Positions 6,212-22,927 of a stretch of 28,204 bases of DNA are shown in pieces. The position numbers and the translations under genes were made by a program. The stretch lies in assembly GCA_021454005.1 (NCBI GenBank), contig GCA_021454005.1_3939.2; one strand, written 5' to 3'. The notes under the pieces were generated by a model. It ran no database searches. It saw nothing but the letters and a program-made list of their open reading frames with translations, and was not told where the DNA came from. The stretch comes from a phage. Within the stretch, counting starts at the first letter, position 1, and every line of letters starts with the position of its first letter.

Positions 6212-6460
6212 ATGGCAACTATCCGCGCTACTGTCAATGCCTATGGCTGTTATACTCTGGACGTTAAATTCGATATTGGTGGAACTGATGAGTGTTTTTC
6301 ATTAGTGAAGACAGTTATCAAACAAGTTATTCCAGATTATAACCCTACTGATGACTTCTGGAAAGATGCTGTAAAAGAGGCATTAAACGACGAGCATCAC
6401 TATCATTACTGGGGTGACTTGATTGTTTCCCTGTACTACAATAAACAAGGTTACAACTAA
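6212..6460 (+). CDS. hypothetical protein (82 aa)
   Basis: ATG 6212 after conserved leader; ORF-track start 6164 lies inside the leader hairpin. Confidence 0.55.
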   Translation: MATIRATVNAYGCYTLDVKFDIGGTDECFSLVKTVIKQVIPDYNPTDDFWKDAVKEALNDEHHYHYWGDLIVSLYYNKQGYN

Positions 6461-6498
6461 TCGACGCAGCGGGGCTAAATAGCCCCAGATACCTGAAC

Positions 6499-6523
6499 AG
6501 CCCCTATTTAAAGGGGCTTTTTA
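6499..6523 (+). terminator. intrinsic terminator AGCCCCT-ATTTAA-AGGGGCT-TTTTT ending the plus-strand small-gene array
   Basis: 7-bp perfect inverted repeat followed by T5; preceded by a second hairpin GGGGCT-AAAT-AGCCCC at 6470-6485. Confidence 0.7.
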
Positions 6524-6892
6524 CGTCTATCGAATCCTTATACAATCTCTTTCCATCACCTTTCCAGAATCTTCCCACTGATTCGATAGAACCTATCTCA
6601 TACCTTAAAAGCAATAACTCTATAGTCTACGCTATAACCTCTTATCAAATCAACTTAAATATAAGCCCATAACCCGAAAGGGAAGGGCAACCGTTTAAAC
6701 GCTCTATAAAGCTCTATAACAGCCTTATCAACCTAACTTAAGGGATTGCATTAACTCACCCTTAAAAGCCCTTTATAAAGCTTCTCAGAGACTTAAAAGA
6801 ATCTTATAAGGGTGTAAGCTTTATTATCTCGTTAGCTATCTTGTGAACTACTAAACAAGCCCCTTGATAGTAACTGAAAAGTATGTTATAGG

Positions 6893-6933
6893 GGCTATAA
6901 AGTTACGTAAAAGAGGCTATAAAGTTACGTAAA
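6893..6933. repeat. tandem direct repeat GGCTATAAAGTTACGTAAA x2 (22-bp period)
   Basis: identical 19-mers at 6893-6911 and 6915-6933. Confidence 0.8.
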
Positions 6934-7324
6934 TGCTAGCCCCCTTAACATCCTTTTAACAATTTCTTAACAATCCCTACATAGTTATGCTTTTAAGGCA
7001 CTTGTTAGCAACTTGTTAGCCCCTTGTTAAATCTCTGTTAAGACCACGTAAAAGCCTTGTAAGAGTCTTTGACATAGCCTTAAAAGCTCCTGTAAAGCCC
7101 TATAAAGAGCTATCTGTACATTTGGGGTGTAACTACTAGGAAGAGACTTAAAAGGGGCTATAAAGAGCTATAGAGAGCTTTTAAGAGGTATGTTTAAAGA
7201 ATCACTAAGAGGGAAAGGGAACGATAAGAAAAGAAGTAGTGACCATGTTAATAGCTTGTTAAAAAGATTAAACACTTGTTAGAAACTTGTTAATTATCTT
7301 AACAAAATAACTCTTTAAAATTAA

Positions 7325-7478
7325 CTTGTTAGCTCTTGTTAGTCATCTGTTAAGATTCTGTAAAGCCTATTCAGCACTTGTTAAGAAACTGTTAAAGCCT
7401 TGTTAGTTCTGTTAAGAATCTGTTAAGACCTTTGAAGAGTTGTTAAGAAGATGTGAGAACTGTTAAGAGATTGTTAAG
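7325..7478. repeat. array of at least 12 direct iterons (C)TTGTTA(A)G / CTGTTAAG at about 10-12 bp spacing
   Basis: copies start at about 7325, 7335, 7347, 7358, 7377, 7389, 7399, 7410, 7420, 7439, 7460, 7471; more copies at 7001-7045 and 7258-7300, some inverted. Confidence 0.75.
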
Positions 7479-8092
7479 GATATTTTAAAATTTTGCAAAG
7501 GGGATGTTACAGGGATGTTAAGGGCTACCAAGCAGATATACATCCTAGACAGATATTTTTCAGTTCCTTCAAAAACCCTAAAAAATGACTTGATAGTCCT
7601 ATTTTATAAAAATTTTAAAATTCTGAATAATTACCTAGACAGCCTTTTAAAAATACAGGTAATAACAGGCTTATAAGATACCTTGTTAGTACCGTGTTAG
7701 ACCTTGTGAGATAAGGTCTGTGAAGATATTCCTGTTAAGTTTGTTAAAACAGTCTATATAGAGGCTTAGTAATACCTAGTGAACACCTATAGAGGGTATC
7801 ATAGCTGACATAGAGATTAAGAGGTGTATAGGAGCTTCTAAGAGGGTATAGAGAGATAGTTAAGGTGATTGTATAGGTTGTTAAGAAGGCTTGTTAGAAG
7901 AGTGTTTAGATGGCTATTTAGAAGGGCTATACAGAGGGCTATTAAGACCACTAGATAGTTACTAAGATACTATATAGTACTATATAACTATATAGAGAGT
8001 AAGATTAAGAAGGTTGTTAAGAAGGATAGATATTTTGTTCACATATGATGGTGACCCAGAGGTTGGGACAACCGATAAAATTTTATAAAAGT

Positions 8093-8117
8093 AAAAAGCC
8101 CCCAATTAAGGAGGCTC
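8093..8117 (-). terminator. intrinsic terminator for the minus-strand operon (AGCCTCC-TTAATT-GGGGGCT + T5 as read on the minus strand)
   Basis: inverted repeat 8098-8116 followed on the minus strand by a U-run (A-run 8093-8097 on plus), 11 nt past stop 8128. Confidence 0.55.
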
Positions 8118-8127
8118 TTAAGATATT

Positions 8128-8676
8128 TTAAATCAGTGTTTCCAGAACTGTTTTTAGTGATGACTTGGTTGTCTGATAAAAATGAGTAAAGCCATTGTTG
8201 TTATCAAATACCTGCATCATGATATCATCTCCCTTGATTGGGTACACTCGGATATCATAGTGAAAACCATTAAAGACACAAGAACCACTACAGAATGTAC
8301 TAAAGTCAGCCACTGAGATATACTCTTCATGTCCTGTGATTTTTATACAAACACCTTTACTCGGTCTCTTAGGATTGATATCTTGCATCACAGACATACT
8401 CTGTCCACCAAGAGATACCATAGTGACCACTTTACGGTTCTTCTGTCTAAAGTACATCTTAACTTTCTGCAAAGTGTCTTCATAGAATGGATAAGACCTT
8501 TCTACAAAGATTCCTTCAAGTGGCTCTTTACCATTTTCAACTTCTCTGTTATGCCGTACTGCAAAGATAATTTGTTCGAACCAGTCAAGATTTTCTTCGG
8601 AGAGTGCTTCCCGAACATCCTTCCAGTCAAGTACTAAGTAGTTACCTTCAACTTCTTTTAAGTTATCTTTTTCCAT
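8128..8676 (-). CDS. hypothetical protein (182 aa from the internal ATG; the ORF extends to 8751)
   Basis: long minus-strand ORF; ATG 8751 has its GAGG abutting the start codon and overlaps the upstream gene by 62 nt, so Met26 at 8676 is preferred. Confidence 0.5.
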   Translation of the reverse strand: MEKDNLKEVEGNYLVLDWKDVREALSEENLDWFEQIIFAVRHNREVENGKEPLEGIFVERSYPFYEDTLQKVKMYFRQKNRKVVTMVSLGGQSMSVMQDINPKRPSKGVCIKITGHEEYISVADFSTFCSGSCVFNGFHYDIRVYPIKGDDIMMQVFDNNNGFTHFYQTTKSSLKTVLETLI

Positions 8677-8689
8677 ATCTATCACACCA

Positions 8690-9154
8690 TTATCGTAAAA
8701 CTTGATATTCTGGTACTGCGAATTTATTACTATTGTTCTTGATGAGGTCATCCTCTGAAACTAAAAATGTAATACCACATAAGTGTCTGTAACGACTATC
8801 ATACTCGAATATCTTAAACAGATATTTACCATCATGATAAACCTGTTGCACTTCACCTTCTGCAACAATCTCGCCTGTAATAAAATTTTTTAGTTTATAC
8901 ACATTACCAACTTTAGGTACTGTTTTCATCTCAGGCTCTTTTAGTGCTACACCTATTTTTGCATCACCGAGTAAATGAGAACTCTCAAAAGCTACGTGTT
9001 TCATATAAGCTTCTGAGCATTCCCAGATAAAACAATGTACAAGAACCTTAGCAGCATGTCTTGAACAGTTCAACTTATCACAAATTTCTGTGTACATCTC
9101 ATCTTTAGTTGAGTTGTCAAGCATTGCTCTTTGCACTATCTCTTTTACTTTCAT
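8690..9154 (-). CDS. hypothetical protein (154 aa)
   Basis: ORF with GGAGAG 4 nt upstream of ATG on the minus strand. Confidence 0.55.
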   Translation of the reverse strand: MKVKEIVQRAMLDNSTKDEMYTEICDKLNCSRHAAKVLVHCFIWECSEAYMKHVAFESSHLLGDAKIGVALKEPEMKTVPKVGNVYKLKNFITGEIVAEGEVQQVYHDGKYLFKIFEYDSRYRHLCGITFLVSEDDLIKNNSNKFAVPEYQVLR

Positions 9155-16203: not shown

Positions 16204-17619
16204 ATGAGCGAATTATTTAAACATGCGCACCTTCATGCAGGTCGAACTGAAAATGGTGCTGTAAACCATACTTCATCAATGTCTGCTCTTGTAGACTTTT
16301 ACAAAGCTGCTGGTTCAAGCCGTAGCAACGTAGAAATCTTACCAGACCTGTTCTACAAAGCTTTGCGTGAGGATGTTGATGTTGCAGTTCGTATTTTGCT
16401 TCATATGCGAGATGTACGAGAAGGTATGGGTGAGCGTAAAGCCTTCAGAACTGTTTTACTTCAAGCGATTGAAGACAAAGTTTTAGAGCCTACGCAGGTT
16501 CTTCGCATTATGGATAAGATTGCAGAACTTGGTCGTTTTGATGACTTCAAAATCTTCGTAGGTACTCGTTTCGAGACAGATGCCTTCAAACATCTAGAAG
16601 CAGCATTACTAGACCCTGCAACAGCAGGTTTGGCGGCTAAGTGGTTACCACGAGTCAAACCACGTCATAAGCAGTTTGTAAAACGTTTCTGCAAGTTTGC
16701 CAACTTGAGTGAGAAAGAGTACCGCACACTGTTGTCTGCACTATCTGATACAGTTGAGCAAAAAATCTCTGCTAATGAGTTTGGTAAGATTGACTACAGT
16801 AAGATTCCTTCACTTGCTGCTGCACGTTACCAAAAACTGTTTAACCGCAAAGATGGAGAACGCTACAAAGCTTACATCGAGTCCTTATCAAAGGGTGAGG
16901 CTAAGATTAATGCTGGTGCTGTTTACCCATACGATGTAATTAAATCTGTTAAGCATGGTAATGCAGATGTTGCTAATGAGCAGTGGAAAGCACTACCAAA
17001 CTGGATGGCAGAGGGTGAAAACATCTTGTGTATGTCTGATGTTTCAAGCTCAATGTCTTGGGTGAATTTTGGTTCAATTACTGCTCTTGATATTGGTGTT
17101 TCACTTGCATTGTATGTAGCAGAACGTAATACAGGTTGCTTTAAGAATGAGTTGATGGTTTATTCAACAAACCCTCACTTCATCGAACTGAGTGGTGATT
17201 TACGAAACCGTCATCGTCAGGTGATGCGACACGTTGAATATGGCTCAACTAACTTACAAGCAGCTTTTGACCGTATTCTTGAAACAGGTAAAAGAAACAA
17301 CTTGACTCAGAAAGATATGCCAAGTAAGCTTATCATCTTCTCCGATATGGAGTTCAATCAGGTTGATGGAGCTAACGGTCGTACAAACTTTGAAGCAATT
17401 CGTAGTAAGTACAAAAAAGCTGGATACGAAATGCCTCAACTGGTATTCTGGTACTTAGCAAACCGTAATGGTACTTGCGAAGTATCTGTTAAGGATAACG
17501 GTGTGGCAATGGTATCTGGTTTTTCTCCAGCTACTTTAAAAGCTCTGCTTGGTGGTGAGAAGTTTGACCCAATCAGCGTAATGCTCAAAGCAGTAATGAT
17601 TGACCGTTATATCTGGTAA
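16204..17619 (+). CDS. vWA-domain protein (MIDAS motif D-x-S-x-S) with N-terminal region resembling DUF2828/TROVE-like proteins
   Basis: 471-aa ORF; DVSSSMS (MIDAS-like) at about residue 280 and downstream IIFSDMEF; N-terminal TENGA...SALVDFY...R..DVREGMGER pattern recalled from DUF2828-type proteins. Confidence 0.7.
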   Translation: MSELFKHAHLHAGRTENGAVNHTSSMSALVDFYKAAGSSRSNVEILPDLFYKALREDVDVAVRILLHMRDVREGMGERKAFRTVLLQAIEDKVLEPTQVLRIMDKIAELGRFDDFKIFVGTRFETDAFKHLEAALLDPATAGLAAKWLPRVKPRHKQFVKRFCKFANLSEKEYRTLLSALSDTVEQKISANEFGKIDYSKIPSLAAARYQKLFNRKDGERYKAYIESLSKGEAKINAGAVYPYDVIKSVKHGNADVANEQWKALPNWMAEGENILCMSDVSSSMSWVNFGSITALDIGVSLALYVAERNTGCFKNELMVYSTNPHFIELSGDLRNRHRQVMRHVEYGSTNLQAAFDRILETGKRNNLTQKDMPSKLIIFSDMEFNQVDGANGRTNFEAIRSKYKKAGYEMPQLVFWYLANRNGTCEVSVKDNGVAMVSGFSPATLKALLGGEKFDPISVMLKAVMIDRYIW

Positions 17620-17784: not shown

Positions 17785-17861
17785 CTCTGTTTAGCTCAGC
17801 TTGGTAGAGCGTTCCGTTTGGGGCGGTAAGGCCGGAGGTTCAAGTCCTCCAACAGAGACCA
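17785..17861 (+). tRNA. tRNA-Pro (anticodon TGG)
   Basis: hand-folded cloverleaf: acceptor CTCTGTT/AACAGAG, anticodon loop TTTGGGG, T arm GGAGG-TTCAAGT-CCTCC, CCA encoded. Confidence 0.7.
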
Positions 17862-17868
17862 AATTAAT

Positions 17869-17946
17869 GTTCCAGTAGACAAAATGGTAAAGTCACCACT
17901 CTTTCAAAGTGGATATCTGAGGGTTCAAATCCCTTCTGGAACGCCA
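17869..17946 (+). tRNA. tRNA-Glu (anticodon TTC)
   Basis: acceptor GTTCCAG/CTGGAAC, anticodon stem CCACT/AGTGG, loop CTTTCAA, T-loop TTCAAAT, CCA encoded. Confidence 0.75.
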
Positions 17947-17953
17947 GTTTTGA

Positions 17954-18025
17954 CAGAAGACCAATTACAGCAAGCTTAATCTACTCATCTGACACGAAAT
18001 CGGACAAAGAAGATATTTGGTCTGG
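17954..18025 (+). ncRNA. spacer element copy 1: CAGAAGACCAA..TACAGCAAG...TTGGTCTGG (terminal 7-bp stem AGACCAA/TTGGTCT)
   Basis: conserved ends and covarying stem shared with copies at 18120, 18507, 18594. Confidence 0.5.
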
Positions 18026-18036
18026 TCATTGAGAAT

Positions 18037-18113
18037 TGCGGGTATAGAGAAAGGGCGTCTCACATGTCTCATTAGCATGGTATCGGCAGGTTCGACTCCT
18101 GCACCCGCCTCCA
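18037..18113 (+). tRNA. tRNA-Met (anticodon CAT)
   Basis: acceptor (T)GCGGGT/ACCCGC(C) with one unpaired position, anticodon stem CATGT/GCATG, loop CTCATTA, T arm GCAGG-TTCGACT-CCTGC, CCA encoded. Confidence 0.6.
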
Positions 18114-18119
18114 ATTTTG

Positions 18120-18179
18120 CAGAAGACCGTATTCAGCAACAAAATACTTTTTGCGGATAAAAGAAAAAACACGGTCTGG
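18120..18179 (+). ncRNA. spacer element copy 2: CAGAAGACCGT..TTCAGCAAC...ACGGTCTGG (stem AGACCGT/ACGGTCT)
   Basis: same architecture as copy 1 with a compensatory change in the stem. Confidence 0.5.
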
Positions 18180-18190
18180 CAATGTATTAA

Positions 18191-18267
18191 GGTTAGGAAG
18201 CACATAAGGTATGTGCGGTCGCCTGTTAAGCGAATGGCACAGGGTTCGAATCCCTGACTAACCGCCA
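18191..18267 (+). tRNA. tRNA-Asn (anticodon GTT)
   Basis: acceptor GGTTAGG/ACTAACC (one mismatch at 7-66), D stem GCAC/GTGC, loop CTGTTAA, T arm CAGGG-TTCGAAT-CCCTG, CCA encoded. Confidence 0.65.
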
Positions 18268-18275
18268 AATTAAAT

Positions 18276-18363
18276 GTGTCGTTATCCCGTAGATGGTAGC
18301 GGTGGGGACTGTAAATCCCTTGTCATTGAGACTCGGTAGGTTCGACTCCTACACGGCACACCA
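18276..18363 (+). tRNA. tRNA-Tyr (anticodon GTA), long variable arm
   Basis: acceptor GTGTCGT/ACGGCAC, loop CTGTAAA, variable stem GTC-ATTGA-GAC, T arm GTAGG-TTCGACT-CCTAC, CCA encoded. Confidence 0.7.
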
Positions 18364-18368
18364 ATAAA

Positions 18369-18445
18369 GGCTATGTAGTTTAACTGGAGAAAATACTCCC
18401 CTGTCACGGGAGATGATGTGAGTTCAAGTCTCATCGTAGCCGCCA
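18369..18445 (+). tRNA. tRNA-Asp (anticodon GTC)
   Basis: acceptor GGCTATG/CGTAGCC, anticodon stem CTCCC/GGGAG, loop CTGTCAC, T-loop TTCAAGT, CCA encoded. Confidence 0.75.
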
Positions 18446-18506
18446 ATTTTGAGAGGGCTATTTAGCCCCTCCCTTAAAGAGTTCTTACGAGTATTCTTTA
18501 AAGGAG

Positions 18507-18580
18507 CAGAAGACCAAATACAGCAAGAATGTATGAAATTTCAAGCCAATTTAATTTTGAAAATTTAAAACTTGGTCTGG
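18507..18580 (+). ncRNA. spacer element copy 3: CAGAAGACCAA..TACAGCAAG...TTGGTCTGG
   Basis: same architecture; stem AGACCAA/TTGGTCT. Confidence 0.5.
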
Positions 18581-18593
18581 CTCAACAAATTTA

Positions 18594-18725
18594 CAGAAGA
18601 CCGTTTACAGCAAAACTTAAACAATCTATTTCTCCGGTAAAGAAAAGGCGAAGGTTCGATTCCTTCACTCGGCAGATGTCGAGTTGGTGTAATGGTAGCA
18701 CTTAAGATGATAAACAACGGTCTGG
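18594..18725 (+). ncRNA. spacer element copy 4 (long form) with terminal stem AGACCGTT/AACGGTCT, containing tRNA-half-like hairpins
   Basis: CAGAAGACCGTTTACAGCAAA at the 5' end and AACGGTCTGG at the 3' end; interior carries a T-arm-like hairpin, an acceptor-like hairpin and a D-arm-like hairpin. Confidence 0.45.
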
Positions 18726-18726
18726 T

Positions 18727-18870
18727 AATTATCTTTGTAGATAAGTTATTAAGCTTACATGTGAGTATGCGACCACAAAGGGTGAAAGGGTAAATTCTAG
18801 ATTTAAACCCAAAAAGGCACATCGCTACAGACCTTAAGCAAGTCTGGGTAGCTTATCTACAAAGATAATT
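18727..18870. repeat. 19-bp perfect inverted repeat (AATTATCTTTGTAGATAAG / CTTATCTACAAAGATAATT) flanking 106 nt
   Basis: arms at 18727-18745 and 18852-18870; could be a long-stem RNA or a miniature inverted-repeat element. Confidence 0.6.
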
Positions 18871-18874
18871 TAAT

Positions 18875-18950
18875 GGAAGTGTAGCAGAATGGTGATGCGG
18901 CAGACTTTTAATCTGACAGGCGATGGGTTCGAATCCCTCCACTTCTACCA
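18875..18950 (+). tRNA. tRNA-Lys (anticodon TTT)
   Basis: acceptor GGAAGTG/CACTTCT (G1.U72), loop CTTTTAA, T-loop TTCGAAT, CCA encoded; close paralog of the tRNA at 20101. Confidence 0.65.
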
Positions 18951-18954
18951 ATAT

Positions 18955-19031
18955 GGTTCAGTCGCAGATAAGGTAATGCAAGGGTCTCATAAGCCCTATG
19001 AATGTGGGTTCGATTCCCATCTGAACCTCCA
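18955..19031 (+). tRNA. tRNA with anticodon CAT (Met, initiator, or Ile2/lysidine type)
   Basis: acceptor GGTTCAG/CTGAACC, anticodon stem AGGGT/GCCCT (three G-C pairs), loop CTCATAA, T arm GTGGG-TTCGATT-CCCAT, CCA encoded. Confidence 0.65.
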
Positions 19032-19032
19032 A

Positions 19033-19108
19033 GCTGGTATAGTTAAGAAGGTTATAACACTCCCCTGATAAGGGAACATCGGTGGTTCGATTCCACCTAC
19101 CAGTACCA
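19033..19108 (+). tRNA. tRNA-Ile (anticodon GAT)
   Basis: acceptor GCTGGTA/TACCAGT, D stem GTTA/TAAC, loop CTGATAA, T arm GGTGG-TTCGATT-CCACC, CCA encoded. Confidence 0.7.
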
Positions 19109-19123
19109 ATTTCAATAAAGTTG

Positions 19124-19152
19124 TTGACATTGAGATGTGACTACTTTATAGT
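19124..19152 (+). promoter_or_regulatory. sigma70-like promoter TTGACA-N17-TATAGT inside the tRNA array
   Basis: hexamers at 19124-19129 and 19147-19152; about 200 nt of unassigned sequence follows before the next tRNA. Confidence 0.6.
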
Positions 19153-19355
19153 AACCTTAGTTTTCGTTGCGTAGCGTCTATTTTGCAAATTTAAAATAAA
19201 TGCAAACGACAATGTTTTTCTGGCAGTAGCTTGATAGGCTAAACACCAGTGAGGTCTTCCAATCCCTCATCAAAGAATTTGGCGTACTAGCCCACGGTAT
19301 GATTAATAAGGTGGGCATCTTTAAGGGCTTTCTAAGAGAGTCTTTAAAGATTAAT

Positions 19356-19432
19356 GCACCCTTAGTTCAATTGGATAGAGCAACGGTCTTCTAAATCGTT
19401 AGTTACAGGTTCGAATCCTGTAGGGTGTGCCA
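19356..19432 (+). tRNA. tRNA-Arg (anticodon TCT)
   Basis: acceptor GCACCCT/AGGGTGT, D arm GTTC-AATTGGATA-GAGC, anticodon stem ACGGT/ATCGT, loop CTTCTAA, T arm ACAGG-TTCGAAT-CCTGT, CCA encoded. Confidence 0.75.
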
Positions 19433-19450
19433 ATTAGTTAGCAGATTACT

Positions 19451-19490
19451 TAGACGACCTAAGCGGGTCTTCCTGTAGGGAGGTGGTCTG
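19451..19490 (+). ncRNA. possible degenerate fifth copy of the AGACC...GGTCTG spacer element
   Basis: TAGACGACC...GGTGGTCTG with 6 of 7 stem positions pairing; weaker match. Confidence 0.25.
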
Positions 19491-19574
19491 TATCTCATGT
19501 TTTCCAGAACATGTAAATAATCTGAGAAGGGGCTTTACAGTGTTGAGATAATACGGTAAGCTTCGAATTACAGT

Positions 19575-19657
19575 ATGGGACGATGTTAAGACTCTAAGGC
19601 ATGAGCAACGGCCTCCAAAACCGTTTCAAAGGGGTTCAACTCCTCCGTCCCATGCCA
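19575..19657 (+). tRNA. tRNA-Trp (anticodon CCA), atypical (about 7 extra nt between acceptor stem and D arm)
   Basis: acceptor ATGGGAC/GTCCCAT (7 of 7), anticodon stem ACGGC/ACCGT with loop CTCCAAA, T arm AGGGG-TTCAACT-CCTCC, CCA encoded; D region does not fold canonically by hand. Confidence 0.5.
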
Positions 19658-19670
19658 AAGTCTTATTAGG

Positions 19671-19758
19671 GGTAGGTAGCGGCTAATGGTAGCCAAACTG
19701 TCTTGAAAACAGTTGCCACTGTAGAGATACGGTGAGGGTTCGACTCCTTTACTTACCG
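19671..19758 (+). tRNA. tRNA-Ser (anticodon TGA), long variable arm
   Basis: acceptor GGTAGGT/ACTTACC, anticodon stem ACTGT/ACAGT, loop CTTGAAA, long variable arm, T-loop TTCGACT; CCA not fully encoded. Confidence 0.7.
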
Positions 19759-19914
19759 CCTAATAAGATTTACACCGTCCATGCTTGCTCGCATTTTCGG
19801 TTTATCCCTCGTGTATTGTCGTACACTGATAAAGCACCTAGTAGGTGTCACGGAGAAGAGATAATATCAAGCTCTCCAAAGGTTCTAGTCACCGGATTAA
19901 ACAAGACTATGCAA

Positions 19915-19935
19915 AGACCTATTTAGGTCTTTTTA
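19915..19935 (+). terminator. intrinsic terminator AGACCT-ATTT-AGGTCT-TTTTT within the tRNA array
   Basis: perfect 6-bp inverted repeat plus T5. Confidence 0.6.
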
Positions 19936-20014
19936 GAGGGCTTCTAAGGTTATTAGTCGCTTGTTGTGGAACCTTGTTGCTCAGGTTCTTAGAAGTTCTC
20001 TAAAAAGATTTAAT

Positions 20015-20093
20015 GGGAGATTGACGGCAACTTGGTAGACCTATCTCGCTTAGAACGAGATGCTTGAGGGTTCGAATCCCTTGTCTCCTACCA
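20015..20093 (+). tRNA. tRNA with anticodon TAG (Leu by the standard code) but a short variable arm
   Basis: acceptor GGGAGAT/GTCTCCT, anticodon stem (A)TCTCG/CGAGA(T), loop CTTAGAA, variable region about 4 nt, T arm GAGGG-TTCGAAT-CCCTT, A73, CCA encoded. Confidence 0.55.
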
Positions 20094-20100
20094 AATTAAT

Positions 20101-20176
20101 GCAGGTGTAGCAAAATGGTTATGCGGCTGACTCTTAATCAGTAAGACGATGGGTTCAATTCCCTCCACCTGTACCA
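20101..20176 (+). tRNA. tRNA-Lys (anticodon CTT)
   Basis: acceptor GCAGGTG/CACCTGT, anticodon stem GCTGA/TCAGT, loop CTCTTAA, T-loop TTCAATT, CCA encoded. Confidence 0.65.
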
Positions 20177-20182
20177 GACATT

Positions 20183-20258
20183 GGGGATGTAGTTTACATG
20201 GTTAAAACATAAGTTTTGCAAACTTAAGTACAGGGTTCAATTCCCTGCTTCTCCACCA
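20183..20258 (+). tRNA. tRNA-Ala (anticodon TGC)
   Basis: acceptor GGGGATG/CTTCTCC with a G3.U70 pair (Ala identity element), D stem GTTT/AAAC, anticodon stem TAAGT/ACTTA, loop TTTGCAA, CCA encoded. Confidence 0.75.
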
Positions 20259-20264
20259 ATTAGT

Positions 20265-20339
20265 GCATCCATAGTTTAAACGGGAAAATTACAGTCTTCC
20301 AAACTGAGGTTGAGGGTTCGATTCCCTCTGGATGCTCCA
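20265..20339 (+). tRNA. tRNA-Gly (anticodon TCC)
   Basis: acceptor GCATCCA/TGGATGC, loop CTTCCAA, T arm GAGGG-TTCGATT-CCCTC, CCA encoded. Confidence 0.7.
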
Positions 20340-20346
20340 AATTAAT

Positions 20347-20422
20347 GCTCCTATCGTATAATTGGCTATTACGGTTGCCTTGTAAGCAACTTATCAGGGT
20401 TCGAATCCTTGTGGGAGCACCA
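20347..20422 (+). tRNA. tRNA-Thr (anticodon TGT)
   Basis: acceptor GCTCCTA/TGGGAGC, anticodon stem GTTGC/GCAAC, loop CTTGTAA, T-loop TTCGAAT, CCA encoded. Confidence 0.75.
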
Positions 20423-20517
20423 ATTCAGAGGTCAAGTGAAAGACCGCTGGTGTCAACTGAAGACCGTAACAAATTCCACGGAGTTGAGTTAGCGGCACAA
20501 CTTCAGACCTCTTTCAT

Positions 20518-20592
20518 GCTCGCTTAGTTTATATGGTAAAACATCACCCTTACAAGATGAAGAAAAAGGTTCAAGTCCTTTAGTGAGTACCA
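20518..20592 (+). tRNA. tRNA-Val (anticodon TAC)
   Basis: acceptor GCTCGCT/AGTGAGT (two G.U pairs), D stem GTTT/AAAC, loop CTTACAA, T arm AAAGG-TTCAAGT-CCTTT, CCA encoded. Confidence 0.65.
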
Positions 20593-20593
20593 T

Positions 20594-20671
20594 GTTCCAG
20601 TATCCCAATTGGCAGAGGATGCAAGCTCAAACCTTGTATTAGTGACGGTTCGAATCCGTCTTGGAACACCA
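20594..20671 (+). tRNA. tRNA with anticodon CAA (Leu by the standard code) but a short variable arm
   Basis: acceptor GTTCCAG/TTGGAAC, D arm ATCC-CAATTGGCAGA-GGAT, anticodon stem GCAAG/CTTGT, loop CTCAAAC, variable region about 6 nt, T arm GACGG-TTCGAAT-CCGTC, A73, CCA encoded. Confidence 0.55.
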
Positions 20672-20676
20672 ATTTT

Positions 20677-20752
20677 GCAGGATTAGTTCAAATGGATAGA
20701 GCAACAGTCTACGAAGCTGTTAATAGGGGTTCGAATCCCTTATCCTGCGCCA
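20677..20752 (+). tRNA. tRNA-Arg (anticodon ACG)
   Basis: acceptor GCAGGAT/ATCCTGC (7 of 7), D arm GTTC-AAATGGATA-GAGC, anticodon stem ACAGT/GCTGT, loop CTACGAA, CCA encoded. Confidence 0.8.
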
Positions 20753-20769
20753 GATAAAAAGGTGATACT

Positions 20770-21012
20770 ATGCAAACATTAACAGTAGTTGAACATGAAA
20801 ACTGTGAGAATATTGAGTTTGTCAGGGTCATTGGTGTTGAACACCACATTTTCTTAAAAGTAGGGTACTTATGTGACCCCGCTAGAGTAGAAAGATTTAT
20901 ACGTGATTGTTTTGGTGGTAGACAGCTAAAGAGTGTTATTTTTGAGACAGTTTTACCAGAAGGTTTAGAAACGAATAATAACATTTATCTCCTTACAAGG
21001 ATTAGACGATGA
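20770..21012 (+). CDS. hypothetical protein (80 aa) embedded in the tRNA array
   Basis: AAGGTGA 5 nt upstream of ATG; stop overlaps the next start (ATGA). Confidence 0.55.
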   Translation: MQTLTVVEHENCENIEFVRVIGVEHHIFLKVGYLCDPARVERFIRDCFGGRQLKSVIFETVLPEGLETNNNIYLLTRIRR

Positions 21013-21566
21013 GATATTTAAAATATGCTTCATGGATTTTCCTAGCTTTGCTAGAACCATTAGCAGCAACCTTAGCAGTTATCTTAGCACCTTTCGTAGT
21101 TCCATTTTACAGTGAGAAGAAAGGCCACTTACCTTTCGGATTTAGATGGATGGAGACATATGACAACCCAATTGATGGTGACGAAGGTCATATCGAACGA
21201 TGGGCTAAGATTAGAAAGATTGGTAAGCTGGGTGTCTACATGCAGAGAGTCGGATGGCTCTGGAGAAACAAAGCTTATAACTTCTCTTACCATGTATTAG
21301 GAAGAGATGTAAAAGATGTTACTAAGTGGAAAGGTAATATCAACGTAAGTTCTGACCCTGAAGATAATCAGACAGGTTATCTCCTAATGTGGAACAGTAA
21401 TGCTTGGGGATTATTCGCTTTTATCCCATCAATTAAAGTCTTTGGTAAACAGTTTTACTGGAGAATTTATATTGGATGGAAACTAAAAAGTGTTGTCCCA
21501 GAAGAAAGAGCATTCTCAAGGGAAAGAGTTATGTTGGCATTCTTTATTCATCCACTGAGAAAGTAA
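21009..21566 (+). CDS. hypothetical membrane protein (185 aa, N-terminal TM segment)
   Basis: translationally coupled to the upstream ORF; N-terminus WIFLALLEPLAATLAVILAPFVVPF is hydrophobic. Confidence 0.6.
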   Translation: MRYLKYASWIFLALLEPLAATLAVILAPFVVPFYSEKKGHLPFGFRWMETYDNPIDGDEGHIERWAKIRKIGKLGVYMQRVGWLWRNKAYNFSYHVLGRDVKDVTKWKGNINVSSDPEDNQTGYLLMWNSNAWGLFAFIPSIKVFGKQFYWRIYIGWKLKSVVPEERAFSRERVMLAFFIHPLRK

Positions 21567-21574
21567 AGATTTAA

Positions 21575-21650
21575 AGGGGATTAGTTTACAAGGTTAAAAC
21601 CTCGGTCTTTGAAATCGAAGAAGTTGGTTCAATTCCAACATCCCCCGCCA
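21575..21650 (+). tRNA. tRNA-Gln (anticodon TTG)
   Basis: acceptor AGGGGAT/ATCCCCC (position 1-72 unpaired A.C), D stem GTTT/AAAC, anticodon stem TCGGT/ATCGA, loop CTTTGAA, T arm GTTGG-TTCAATT-CCAAC, CCA encoded. Confidence 0.65.
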
Positions 21651-21652
21651 AT

Positions 21653-21731
21653 GCTCCATTACTCCAATTGGCAGAGAGGCCAGACTTAAAATCTGTGTTA
21701 TGTATCGGTTCGAATCCGATATGGAGTACCA
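21653..21731 (+). tRNA. tRNA with anticodon TAA (Leu by the standard code) but a short variable arm
   Basis: acceptor GCTCCAT/ATGGAGT, D region CCAATTGGCAGAG, anticodon stem (C)CAGA/TCTG(T), loop CTTAAAA, variable region about 7 nt, T arm ATCGG-TTCGAAT-CCGAT, A73, CCA encoded. Confidence 0.55.
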
Positions 21732-21736
21732 AATTT

Positions 21737-21812
21737 AGCGGTATAGCATAACTGGCAATGCAACAGTCTCTGAAGCTGTCCTATTAAGGTTCAAATCCTT
21801 ATGCCGCTGCCA
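21737..21812 (+). tRNA. tRNA-Gln (anticodon CTG)
   Basis: acceptor AGCGGTA/TGCCGCT, anticodon stem ACAGT/GCTGT, loop CTCTGAA, T arm TAAGG-TTCAAAT-CCTTA, CCA encoded. Confidence 0.65.
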
Positions 21813-21843
21813 CTTCTAAGGGTTCTTACGAGAGTCCTTAAAT

Positions 21844-21919
21844 GTGGCCTTATCATAAATGGTAATGACCCATGCTGTGAACATGGTCTATACGGGTTCA
21901 AATCCCGTAGGTCACCCCA
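21844..21919 (+). tRNA. tRNA-His (anticodon GTG)
   Basis: acceptor GTGGCCT/AGGTCAC, D stem TCAT/ATGA, anticodon stem CCATG/CATGG, loop CTGTGAA, discriminator C73, CCA encoded. Confidence 0.75.
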
Positions 21920-21924
21920 ATTTA

Positions 21925-21999
21925 TAGTCCAAGTAGCTTATATGGTTAAAGCGCGTGTCTGAAAAACATGAGAAGAGGGTTCAAATCCCACTGGACTAC
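21925..21999 (+). tRNA. tRNA-Phe (anticodon GAA)
   Basis: acceptor TAGTCCA/TGGACTA (7 of 7), anticodon stem CGTGT/ACATG, loop CTGAAAA, T-loop TTCAAAT; D arm irregular; CCA only partly encoded. Confidence 0.6.
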
Positions 22000-22017
22000 C
22001 AATTTCAAAGGTGCTTA

Positions 22018-22752
22018 ATGAAAGAGATGACAGAACAAGGTAAGGAGATTTTTAATCTCTTAAAAACCGGTAAAGGGTTTTCTAACCCACTTATTACTGG
22101 TGCAGCAGTTCTCGGTGGAACCGTAGCTGCCTCTACATCACTTGTAAGCTCTATTAGTTCTGTAACAGACCCTACAATGCAGGAGAAACTTGTTGCTGCT
22201 GGACTTACAACAGTCCTTCTAAACAGCTTTACAACAAGCCTTACAAGCACTACAGCAACTACTAAGACCCTGACAGACTACGGTCAAAAATCTATTGATG
22301 AGTTTTCATCACGTATGCAGGTAGCAAAGGGATATTCCAATGTTATGGGTGCAGCAGGAGAACAAGTTGGTTGTACACCGTTCAGTGGTATTATGGGTGT
22401 TGCTACAGAATATGGTCAAAAAGCTATTGATACGATTAACAGTACACTAGAGAGTGTTAACGATGTATTAAGTGACTTACAAGACGCTATTGACAAGGGT
22501 CTTGATACTGTTTCTGATTTAGCTAACCAAGCTGTCAGTAAGATTAATGAAGGTATCTCAAAGATTACAGCTTATGCAGATGAAGTTGTGCAGATGATTG
22601 AAGAAGAAGCTGCCCTTATTGCAGAGTACCTTAAAACGAATATCAATGGGTTCTTAGCAGGTATCTTACCAGACTGGTTTGACGATGCCTGTAAAACTGG
22701 TGTAATTGACACTATTGCAACACCAGAAATGAAGAACGCATTACAGAAATAA
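22018..22752 (+). CDS. hypothetical Ser/Thr/Ala-rich protein (244 aa)
   Basis: ATG 22018 with AAAGG upstream; the ORF-track start 21955 lies inside tRNA-Phe. Confidence 0.6.
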   Translation: MKEMTEQGKEIFNLLKTGKGFSNPLITGAAVLGGTVAASTSLVSSISSVTDPTMQEKLVAAGLTTVLLNSFTTSLTSTTATTKTLTDYGQKSIDEFSSRMQVAKGYSNVMGAAGEQVGCTPFSGIMGVATEYGQKAIDTINSTLESVNDVLSDLQDAIDKGLDTVSDLANQAVSKINEGISKITAYADEVVQMIEEEAALIAEYLKTNINGFLAGILPDWFDDACKTGVIDTIATPEMKNALQK

Positions 22753-22754
22753 AT

Positions 22755-22847
22755 GGAAGATTAACCCTAAAAGGTAAGGGAGCAGTTTGCTAAACTGCCA
22801 GTAGCTGAGAAATCGGTGTACCAGTTCAAGTCTGGTATCTTCCTCCA
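22755..22847 (+). tRNA. tRNA-Ser (anticodon GCT), long variable arm
   Basis: acceptor GGAAGAT/ATCTTCC (7 of 7), anticodon stem GCAGT/ACTGC, loop TTGCTAA, long variable arm, T arm ACCAG-TTCAAGT-CTGGT, CCA encoded. Confidence 0.75.
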
Positions 22848-22851
22848 ATTT

Positions 22852-22927
22852 GAATCCGTGACAGAAATGGCTATGTGCCTGTCTGCAAAACAGGTTTATA
22901 AGGGTTCGAGTCCCTTCGGATTCTCCA
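22852..22927 (+). tRNA. tRNA-Cys (anticodon GCA)
   Basis: acceptor GAATCCG/CGGATTC (7 of 7), anticodon stem CCTGT/ACAGG, loop CTGCAAA, T arm AAGGG-TTCGAGT-CCCTT, CCA encoded. Confidence 0.8.

Follow-up and report, generated by a model that had tools for sequence, protein, structure and literature searches.

Leucine tRNA genes without the long variable arm in a phage tRNA array

Introduction

According to the textbooks every bacterial leucine tRNA has a long extra arm. Does this hold for the leucine tRNAs that phages carry? The question is raised by a 28,204-nucleotide (nt) stretch of phage DNA (contig GCA_021454005.1_3939.2 of NCBI GenBank assembly GCA_021454005.1; hereafter the window), in which three tRNA genes with the leucine anticodons UAG, CAA and UAA lie between positions 20,015 and 21,731. 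A reading of the letters alone (the original prediction) had noticed that all three seem to lack the arm and had left three options, namely class I-like leucine tRNAs, tRNAs of a different identity, or wrong folds. Here we confirm that the three genes encode class I (type I) leucine tRNAs without the long variable arm, and we consider how such tRNAs could serve a phage of enterobacteria.

Results

The three leucine tRNAs have variable loops of 5, 6 and 7 nt

ARAGORN calls tRNA-Leu(UAG) at 20015..20093 (79 nt), tRNA-Leu(CAA) at 20594..20671 (78 nt) and tRNA-Leu(UAA) at 21653..21731 (79 nt), all class I, all on the plus strand and all with the encoded CCA counted in; the coordinates and anticodons are those originally predicted, and Rfam agrees. 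The Rfam model RF00005 matches the three end to end (model positions 1-71, the class I consensus) at 30.5, 44 and 47.5 bits, respectively, the gathering score being 29 bits. From the ARAGORN cloverleaf and our own parsing, the variable loop of Leu-UAG (anticodon 20051-20053) is UGCUU, 5 nt at 20061-20065, that of Leu-CAA (anticodon 20628-20630) is AUUAGU, 6 nt at 20638-20643, and that of Leu-UAA (anticodon 21687-21689) is GUUAUGU, 7 nt at 21697-21703. The shortness of the region had been foreseen, and the range of 4-7 nt given for it narrows to these three lengths. A class II tRNALeu has a variable stem-loop of at least about 10-13 nt; what we find instead is a leucine anticodon combined with a short loop (about 5 nt in type I tRNALeu) in an otherwise complete tRNA. 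The remainder of the cloverleaf is canonical, with a 7-bp acceptor stem, a D arm, a 5-bp anticodon stem closing a 7-nt loop with U33, and a T arm made of a 5-bp stem and a GTTCRANYC loop. Leu-UAG and Leu-UAA begin with a G1.U72 pair, and all three end in A73, as the original prediction had it, followed by the encoded CCA.

The long arm is kept elsewhere in the same array, again as predicted. The class II comparators tRNA-Tyr(GUA) (18276..18363, 88 nt), tRNA-Ser(UGA) (19671..19760, 90 nt) and tRNA-Ser(GCU) (22755..22847, 93 nt), all on the plus strand, have the arm, which shows as an extra hairpin in their minimum-energy folds.

Covariation and conservation support the short-loop cloverleaf

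Could the fold or the anticodon call be mistaken, so that the short variable region is an artefact and the genes are in truth class II genes or pseudogenes? ViennaRNA folds of the single sequences are not all cloverleaves, with weak z-scores of -0.5 to -1.8, and the acceptor register that Rfam chooses for Leu-UAG is off by one base. As single folds are uninformative for tRNAs, we relied on comparative evidence. Forty-one distinct class I leucine tRNAs, the three of the window included, align nearly gap-free. Across these homologues the short-loop cloverleaf forms standard pairs in 96.9% of cells, a figure that falls to 59.6% on shuffling and to 36-46% when the register is slid; both-sided changes occur in 19 of its 21 pairs, and the covariation score is 0.98 as opposed to 0.24 (shuffled) and at most 0.19 (slid registers). 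Covariation is present in all four helices, and none of the slid registers receives such backing. In addition, the 75-76 nt that precede the CCA leave no space for a class II arm of at least 13 nt, and running ARAGORN, a check that the original prediction had itself proposed, revealed neither a displaced anticodon nor a variable arm of 13 nt or longer. With ARAGORN, Rfam, the cloverleaf parsing and covariation in agreement, the artefact is refuted and has practically no chance of being correct.

Nor do the genes behave as pseudogenes, being conserved almost perfectly over hundreds of genomes. The window belongs to a Felix O1-like phage (Felixounavirus) of E. coli and Salmonella, and nearly identical copies of the three leucine genes are present in more than 250 phage records. 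The tRNA region is 98.4% identical to that of Escherichia phage vB_EcoM_ASO1A (Felixounavirus, Ounavirinae), with the same gene order, and is matched by 368 phage records, mainly from phages of Escherichia, Salmonella and Shigella. Leu-CAA is found in 292 phage records (identity of at least 99% in 160) and Leu-UAA in 264 (at least 99% in 216), while Leu-UAG, found in 408, is more variable; in Felixounavirus, Suspvirus and Mooglevirus, over hundreds of genomes, the leucine genes are 95-100% identical. In the distant orthologues of Kolesnikvirus, a Yersinia phage and T5-like phages the stems differ and the differences are compensated. GenBank labels the leucine genes mostly tRNA-Leu, and in a few records tRNA-OTHER, Undet or Thr. 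The three leucine genes are genuine and under selection.

Leu-CAA and Leu-UAA have a leucine-type D arm, whereas that of Leu-UAG is irregular

The D regions had been said to resemble those of class II tRNAs, which is exact for Leu-CAA and Leu-UAA and holds loosely for Leu-UAG. The D arms of the former two (UCCC AAUUGGCAG AGGA and CUCC AAUUGGCAG AGAG, respectively) are of the tRNALeu type, with a 3-bp stem, an unpaired 13.22 mismatch and the 9-nt loop AAUUGGCAG. The D arm of Leu-UAG, ACGG-C-AACUUGGUAG-ACCU, has one additional nucleotide between position 13 and A14 as compared with its host and T5-like counterparts, and a second extra nucleotide in the 5' half of the loop; its stem contains a C11.C24 mismatch. 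ARAGORN and Rfam differ in the D-arm or acceptor register they choose for this gene, the Rfam acceptor being shifted by one base. The Leu-UAG orthologue of phage Shy has the same extra nucleotide and C11.C24 mismatch, and its anticodon stem (CCAUC/GUUGG as opposed to UCUCG/CGAGA) is fully paired; that a wholly different stem is nevertheless paired argues for selection on structure.

Two D-arm subtypes can be told apart. One has U8-A9 with C13.A22 and is seen in Leu-CAA and Leu-UAA and also in actinobacterial genes, and the other has U8-G9 with G13.A22 and is seen in Leu-UAG, in E. coli leuZ and in some other class II tRNALeu. The two subtypes hint at more than one origin.

Leucine identity elements are kept

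Are the three leucine tRNAs in more than their anticodons? In E. coli the leucine identity set comprises A73, A15:U48, G18G19, A20a, G18:U55, G19-C56 and U54:A58, and leucine identity requires neither the anticodon nor the long arm (PMC9976931). A14 is an added element (PMC6614811, and the section of PMC9976931 on mitochondrial tRNALeu), and minimal E. coli tRNALeu variants without the arm are still charged by the E. coli leucyl-tRNA synthetase (LeuRS; EcLeuRS for the E. coli enzyme), as summarised in PMC9976931. Among the 41 class I leucine tRNAs, U8, A15, G19, A20a (the A two nucleotides after G19), U33, A35, U48, G53, U54, C56, A58, C61 and A73 are invariant, and A14, G18 and U55 are conserved in at least 90%. 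The Levitt pair A15:U48 is A:U in 41 of 41; in the phage Leu-CAA and Leu-UAA the last variable nucleotide is a U able to form it, and in Leu-UAG the assignment of A14 and A15 depends on the placement chosen for the extra nucleotides of the D loop. Read off the gene sequences, every element of the published E. coli set is retained and only the dispensable arm is absent. Of 43 class I leucine tRNAs 42 have the combination of A73, A15:U48 and GGNA, as do 31 of 39 class II ones; among ~730 other tRNAs from the same loci the combination occurs in only ~6%, indicating that it marks leucine tRNAs and not phage tRNAs generally.

It is very improbable that these tRNAs, in spite of their anticodons, are charged with another amino acid, whether by recoding or through a misannotated identity. 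The class I shape is admittedly what the synthetases other than those for Leu, Ser and Tyr expect, and the GenBank labels tRNA-OTHER, Undet and even Thr would fit such a reading. For the equivalent three tRNAs of the Moogle-like phage Sf14, tRNAscan-SE isotype models place Leu first (67.4, 49.1 and 60.2), the UAG tRNA being followed by Ile2 at 65.7, Lys at 63.4 and Arg at 60.0 (PMC12482277, which never mentions the variable region). In their anticodon loops the UAG and CAA tRNAs of Sf14 agree with those of the window, and the UAA tRNAs differ at position 32. That Leu is the top model for all three, and that the leucine-specific signature of D loop, Levitt pair and A73 is present, speaks against another identity. 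So do the 3:70 pairs, which are G-C, U-A and U-A in place of the G3:U70 of tRNAAla, and the absence of both G73 and the long arm in defined orientation that distinguish tRNASer; the synthetases of the near-scoring isotypes, moreover, need anticodon bases that are absent here (rules in PMC9976931). All six leucine codons are used in conserved proteins such as terminase, and no sign of reassignment was seen there, although no formal test was made. With the folds confirmed and the LeuRS identity elements kept, the class I-like leucine tRNAs envisaged by the original prediction are the option that holds.

The anticodons match codons favoured by the phage

In 26 open reading frames (ORFs) of the window, amounting to 5,241 codons, leucine is encoded by TTA (29.5%), CTT (28.3%), CTA (13.2%), TTG (11.5%), CTG (11.0%) and CTC (6.5%), so that TTA, CTT and CTA together account for 71% of leucine codons. 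In E. coli about half of the leucine codons are CTG and CTA is the rarest, TTA, CTT and CTA being minor codons in the host, and phage tRNA sets usually serve codons that the phage favours. The codon shares and the host preference together indicate that the anticodons UAA, CAA and UAG do so as well. The claim that the three tRNAs decode all six leucine codons was overstated, as this would require four-way wobble by U34 of the UAG tRNA; by standard wobble the three anticodons would read UUA, UUG, CUA and CUG, with CUU a plausible addition and CUC an unsafe one.

Class I leucine tRNAs are widespread in phages and bacteria

By ARAGORN, short leucine tRNAs (74-79 nt) are the only ones in the Suspvirus phages CHB7 and SUSP1, in a Yersinia phage and in the T5-like phage KookSpook. 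The same holds, in that only short leucine tRNAs are called, for the Kolesnikvirus phages phiEa104 and phi63_307 (anticodons CAA, AAG and UAA), Aeromonas phage Akh-2 (Demerecviridae) and Lactobacillus phage LpeD (Herelleviridae). All Ser tRNAs in the loci of these phages keep their arm, and so do the Tyr tRNAs wherever present. In T5 itself, and in a T4-like Aeromonas phage, the leucine tRNAs are class II; thus both architectures exist in phages, sometimes at syntenic positions. T5 was considered as a studied example of class I and discarded, its Leu(UAG) being class II (85 nt, variable region of 13 nt); among T5-like phages only some, such as KookSpook, carry class I leucine tRNAs. Derivation of the KookSpook Leu(UAG) from the T5 gene by deletion of the arm was rejected as well: a single 8-nt gap falls exactly in the arm, and the remainder, including the acceptor stem, is too different. 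Replacement is as likely an origin of this class I gene as direct deletion.

A first pattern scan of IMG/VR, covering at least 120 loci, gave 61 leucine tRNAs, 24 of them of 78 nt or less, while all 23 Ser tRNAs measured at least 86 nt. A second scan was blind to the length of the variable loop (anticodon loop CUUAAAA, any 12-30 nt, T loop GGTTCGAATCC) and took in the first 120 matches per collection, all counts being confirmed by ARAGORN. Among the matches listed, tRNALeu(UAA) is class I (variable region of 5-7 nt) in 70 cases and class II (at least 12 nt) in 43 in IMG/VR viral contigs, and class I (5-7 nt) in 33 and class II (at least 13 nt) in 72 in GTDB species genomes. The class I share among these matches is thus ~60% in viral contigs and ~30% in bacterial genomes, rough fractions since the required T loop may favour one class and IMG/VR is not dereplicated. 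Class I tRNALeu is clearly common.

The class I Leu(UAA) genes of GTDB are mostly solitary genes of Actinomycetota (Nonomuraea, Nocardia, Microbacterium, Leucobacter, Kibdelosporangium and several metagenome-assembled genomes), and a few are found in other phyla or in tRNA arrays. The bacterial class I tRNALeu is much broader than the single Streptomyces coelicolor case in the literature.

Several further observations concern these collections. Some 30 GTDB loci (L255, L273, L286, L289, L319 and ~25 others), many of them in Actinomycetota and a few in other phyla, hold a solitary class I tRNALeu(UAA) with A73 and the D arm UA GCCC AAYNGGCAG AGGC. A Gly-Cys-Leu cluster of Rokuibacteriota, with a class I tRNALeu(UAA), mirrors E. 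coli glyW-cysT-leuZ. Viral contigs L088, L097, L034, L036 and others have leucine tRNAs with variable regions of 9-12 nt, and with such intermediates the arm length of phage tRNALeu is closer to a continuum from 17 to 5 nt than to two clean classes. In one array of the IMG/VR contig L106 (6857-7451), Leu(CAA) and Leu(UAG) are class I and Leu(UAA), at 87 nt, is class II, so both architectures can coexist in one phage.

The tRNA array and its neighbourhood

The leucine genes belong to an array of 26 tRNA genes called by ARAGORN at 17785..22927 on the plus strand, tightly spaced and most with an encoded CCA; the Rfam tRNA model recovers 24 of the 26 above its gathering score. Three plus-strand ORFs of unassigned function, conserved in relatives, lie inside the array: one of 80 aa (20770-21012; phrog_14202), one of 185 aa (21009-21566; DUF7338) and one of 244 aa (22018-22752; DUF7217). 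Relatives have an HNH endonuclease or a PD-(D/E)XK 'tRNA endonuclease-like' ORF in the corresponding places instead. The array also has longer spacers, for example 18446-18874, 19109-19355 and 19761-20014. The record of T5 (NC_005859) lists 'stable RNAs with unknown functions', some of them tRNA-like, interspersed with its tRNA genes (6285-6645, 7809-7980, 8839-9084 and 16849-17567). Notes in that record also describe suppressor tests of T5 tRNAs.

Directly upstream of the array, a 471-aa protein is encoded at 16204-17619 on the plus strand, with Pfam DUF2828 and DUF7788 and PHROG phrog_850 ('RNA-binding protein'); its homologue in CHB7 is annotated vWA/DUF2828, and a sequence search of the PDB gave no match. 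The domain combination presumably resembles that of Ro60-type (TROVE plus vWA) RNA-binding proteins, and the conserved place of the protein beside tRNA genes may be meaningful. Farther away, ~1.6 kb between converging gene blocks (~6460-8128) are free of ORFs reaching 60 aa, the longest having 53 aa. The same region of the 98%-identical ASO1A is unannotated except for flanking terminators, and no Rfam family was found at E <= 0.1 in 6300-8300.

Discussion

Probable charging by the host synthetase

Based on our data we propose that each phage tRNA is an otherwise normal tRNALeu whose long variable arm has been swapped for a loop of 5-7 nt. The features that an E. coli-type LeuRS is reported to read are kept (A73, U8-A14, A15:U48, G18G19 with A20a, G19-C56 and the elbow U54-A58), and with these elements in place the host LeuRS most likely charges the three tRNAs with leucine. 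Once charged, they would supply the AT-rich leucine codons TTA, CTT and CTA. The three are thus probably working leucine tRNAs, their expression, charging and use by the ribosome being predicted from sequence features. Secondarily, the arm, not being needed by LeuRS, would be free to be lost, and its absence may also remove a handle for seryl-tRNA synthetase (SerRS) and for toxins or defence nucleases that recognise or cleave class II tRNAs at this arm.

Several points weigh against this proposal. The type I tRNALeu(CAA) of S. coelicolor was left uncharged by EcLeuRS, which in the words of the same study 'only charges type II tRNALeu' (PMC6614811, Fan et al. 2019). The leucine-specific domain of EcLeuRS is said to favour large variable loops, type I charging depending on the leucine-specific domain of the Streptomyces LeuRS (PMC6614811). 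In a crystal complex cited in PMC6614811, the C-terminal domain of EcLeuRS contacts nucleotides 47f-47i at the base of the arm, and this contact is lost in the three phage tRNAs. The D arm of Leu-UAG is weak and irregular, its Rfam score (30.5 bits) lies close to the threshold of 29 bits, and for the Sf14 UAG tRNA the Leu model exceeds Ile2 only narrowly (67.4 compared with 65.7; PMC12482277). If the restriction of EcLeuRS to type II were general, the phage tRNAs would stay uncharged during infection, which is hard to reconcile with their conservation and intact identity set; that arm-less E. coli constructs can be charged argues against such a generalisation.

Should they indeed be made and yet be leucylated poorly or not at all, the tRNAs might act as decoys or sponges for tRNA-directed toxins and nucleases, or have some other role outside translation. 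The failure of EcLeuRS with a bacterial type I tRNALeu in vitro (PMC6614811) would suit such a role, and phage tRNAs are known to neutralise tRNA-cleaving defences, as T5 tRNATyr does against retron-Eco7 and T6 tRNATyr against Septu (PMC11555353, PMC13096335). A decoy, however, would not need all the positions that charging and decoding require and that are invariant here (A73, CCA, U33, the 7-nt anticodon loop and the elbow), nor anticodons that fit the preferred leucine codons of the phage, and if the enzyme to be lured were arm-directed, one would expect the arm to have been retained. As EcLeuRS also charges E. coli tRNALeu variants without the arm (PMC9976931), we regard a non-translational role as improbable, and service as leucine tRNAs charged by the host remains our preferred explanation.

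Why the arm was lost

By default we take the loss of the arm to be neutral, a dispensable element having disappeared. A rather unlikely thought is that the loss is adaptive, in which case arm-less tRNAs would have been evolved or acquired repeatedly, could be charged by the host LeuRS, and would be invisible to toxins or defence nucleases that act on the arm. It gains plausibility from several systems that work on the variable region of class II tRNAs. The variable loop of tRNATyr is cleaved by retron-Eco7 PtuAB and by Septu, and T5 tRNATyr escapes by having a different loop (PMC13096335, PMC11555353); a preference for long-armed class II tRNAs seems to be shared by the abortive-infection toxin AbiEii and by MenT3 (bioRxiv 10.64898/2026.01.19.700257). 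An arm-less tRNA could equally evade the host-shutoff nuclease of the phage itself. We know of no enterobacterial defence aimed at the arm of tRNALeu. If adaptation were nonetheless the cause, the phage would keep a private, attack-proof supply of leucine tRNAs, and an E. coli-type LeuRS would have to charge natural type I tRNALeu well, in conflict with the published statement that it is confined to type II.

What is already known is that the genes are annotated as tRNA-Leu in public records, and that type I tRNALeu occurs in animal mitochondria and in one Streptomyces study. In the searchable literature we found no paper on class I tRNALeu in phages and no test of an enterobacterial LeuRS on an arm-less phage tRNALeu, and the term 'type I tRNALeu' in PMC6614811 only. 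S. coelicolor is the single studied bacterial exception to the long-arm rule, and here three arm-less leucine tRNAs are kept nearly base for base in hundreds of phages of E. coli, Salmonella and Shigella. If enterobacterial LeuRS does not accept natural type I tRNALeu, these conserved genes must have a task other than decoding. The class I shares of ~60% and ~30% among the viral and bacterial matches listed mean that the long-arm rule is much leakier than stated. All this bears on tRNA annotation, on models of class II tRNA evolution, on the design of orthogonal tRNAs and on the escape of phage tRNAs from tRNA-directed immunity.

Comparison with known systems

The nearest reference is the host set, for which E. 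coli K-12 leuZ (UAA), leuX (CAA) and leuW (UAG) were compared with the phage tRNAs by structural segment. The anticodons, A73, A15:U48 and the T-loop bases of the elbow are the same, and Leu-CAA and Leu-UAA share with E. coli tRNALeu a D arm consisting of a 3-bp stem, a 13.22 mismatch and a loop AAUYGGYAG; the host versions of this loop are AAUCGGUAG and AAUUGGUAG (as in GCGA AAUUGGUAG ACGC), compared with AAUUGGCAG in the phage. The main difference is the variable arm, of 13 nt in leuW and leuX and 15 nt in leuZ, as opposed to the phage loop of 5-7 nt. In addition, U8-A9 and C13.A22 of Leu-CAA and Leu-UAA stand in place of the U8-G9 and the G13.A22 or A13.A22 of the host, and the anticodon loop is UUUAGGU with G37 in leuW and CUUAGAA with A37 in the phage Leu-UAG. 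G37 of the host tRNALeu(UAG) is the m1G37 site.

Engineered E. coli tRNALeu without the arm shows that EcLeuRS needs A73 and the D/T-loop tertiary core and not the arm, and charging of the phage tRNAs would follow the same logic (work summarised in PMC9976931). It differs in consisting of laboratory constructs of reduced efficiency, whereas the phage genes are natural and conserved. The animal mitochondrial tRNALeu(UUR) and tRNALeu(CUN) are likewise class I, with A73 and A14 as identity elements (PMC9976931), yet their elbows are degenerate and a dedicated LeuRS serves them, unlike the phage tRNAs with their canonical elbow (G18G19, U54, U55, C56 and A58). T5 tRNATyr is a class II phage tRNA with a variable region unlike that of the host, by which it resists retron-Eco7 PtuAB (PMC13096335, PMC11555353), and so offers a working precedent for evasion; it accepts Tyr and not Leu, and its arm is altered, not deleted.

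The S. coelicolor type I tRNALeu(CAA), the only biochemically studied bacterial precedent found in the searchable literature, has a 5-nt variable loop and is leucylated by a bacterial LeuRS (PMC6614811). Compared by its published description, it differs in that A73 reportedly plays no part in its identity (PMC6614811), and in that the leucine-specific domain of its LeuRS is adapted to type I, whereas the phage tRNAs must work in enterobacteria.

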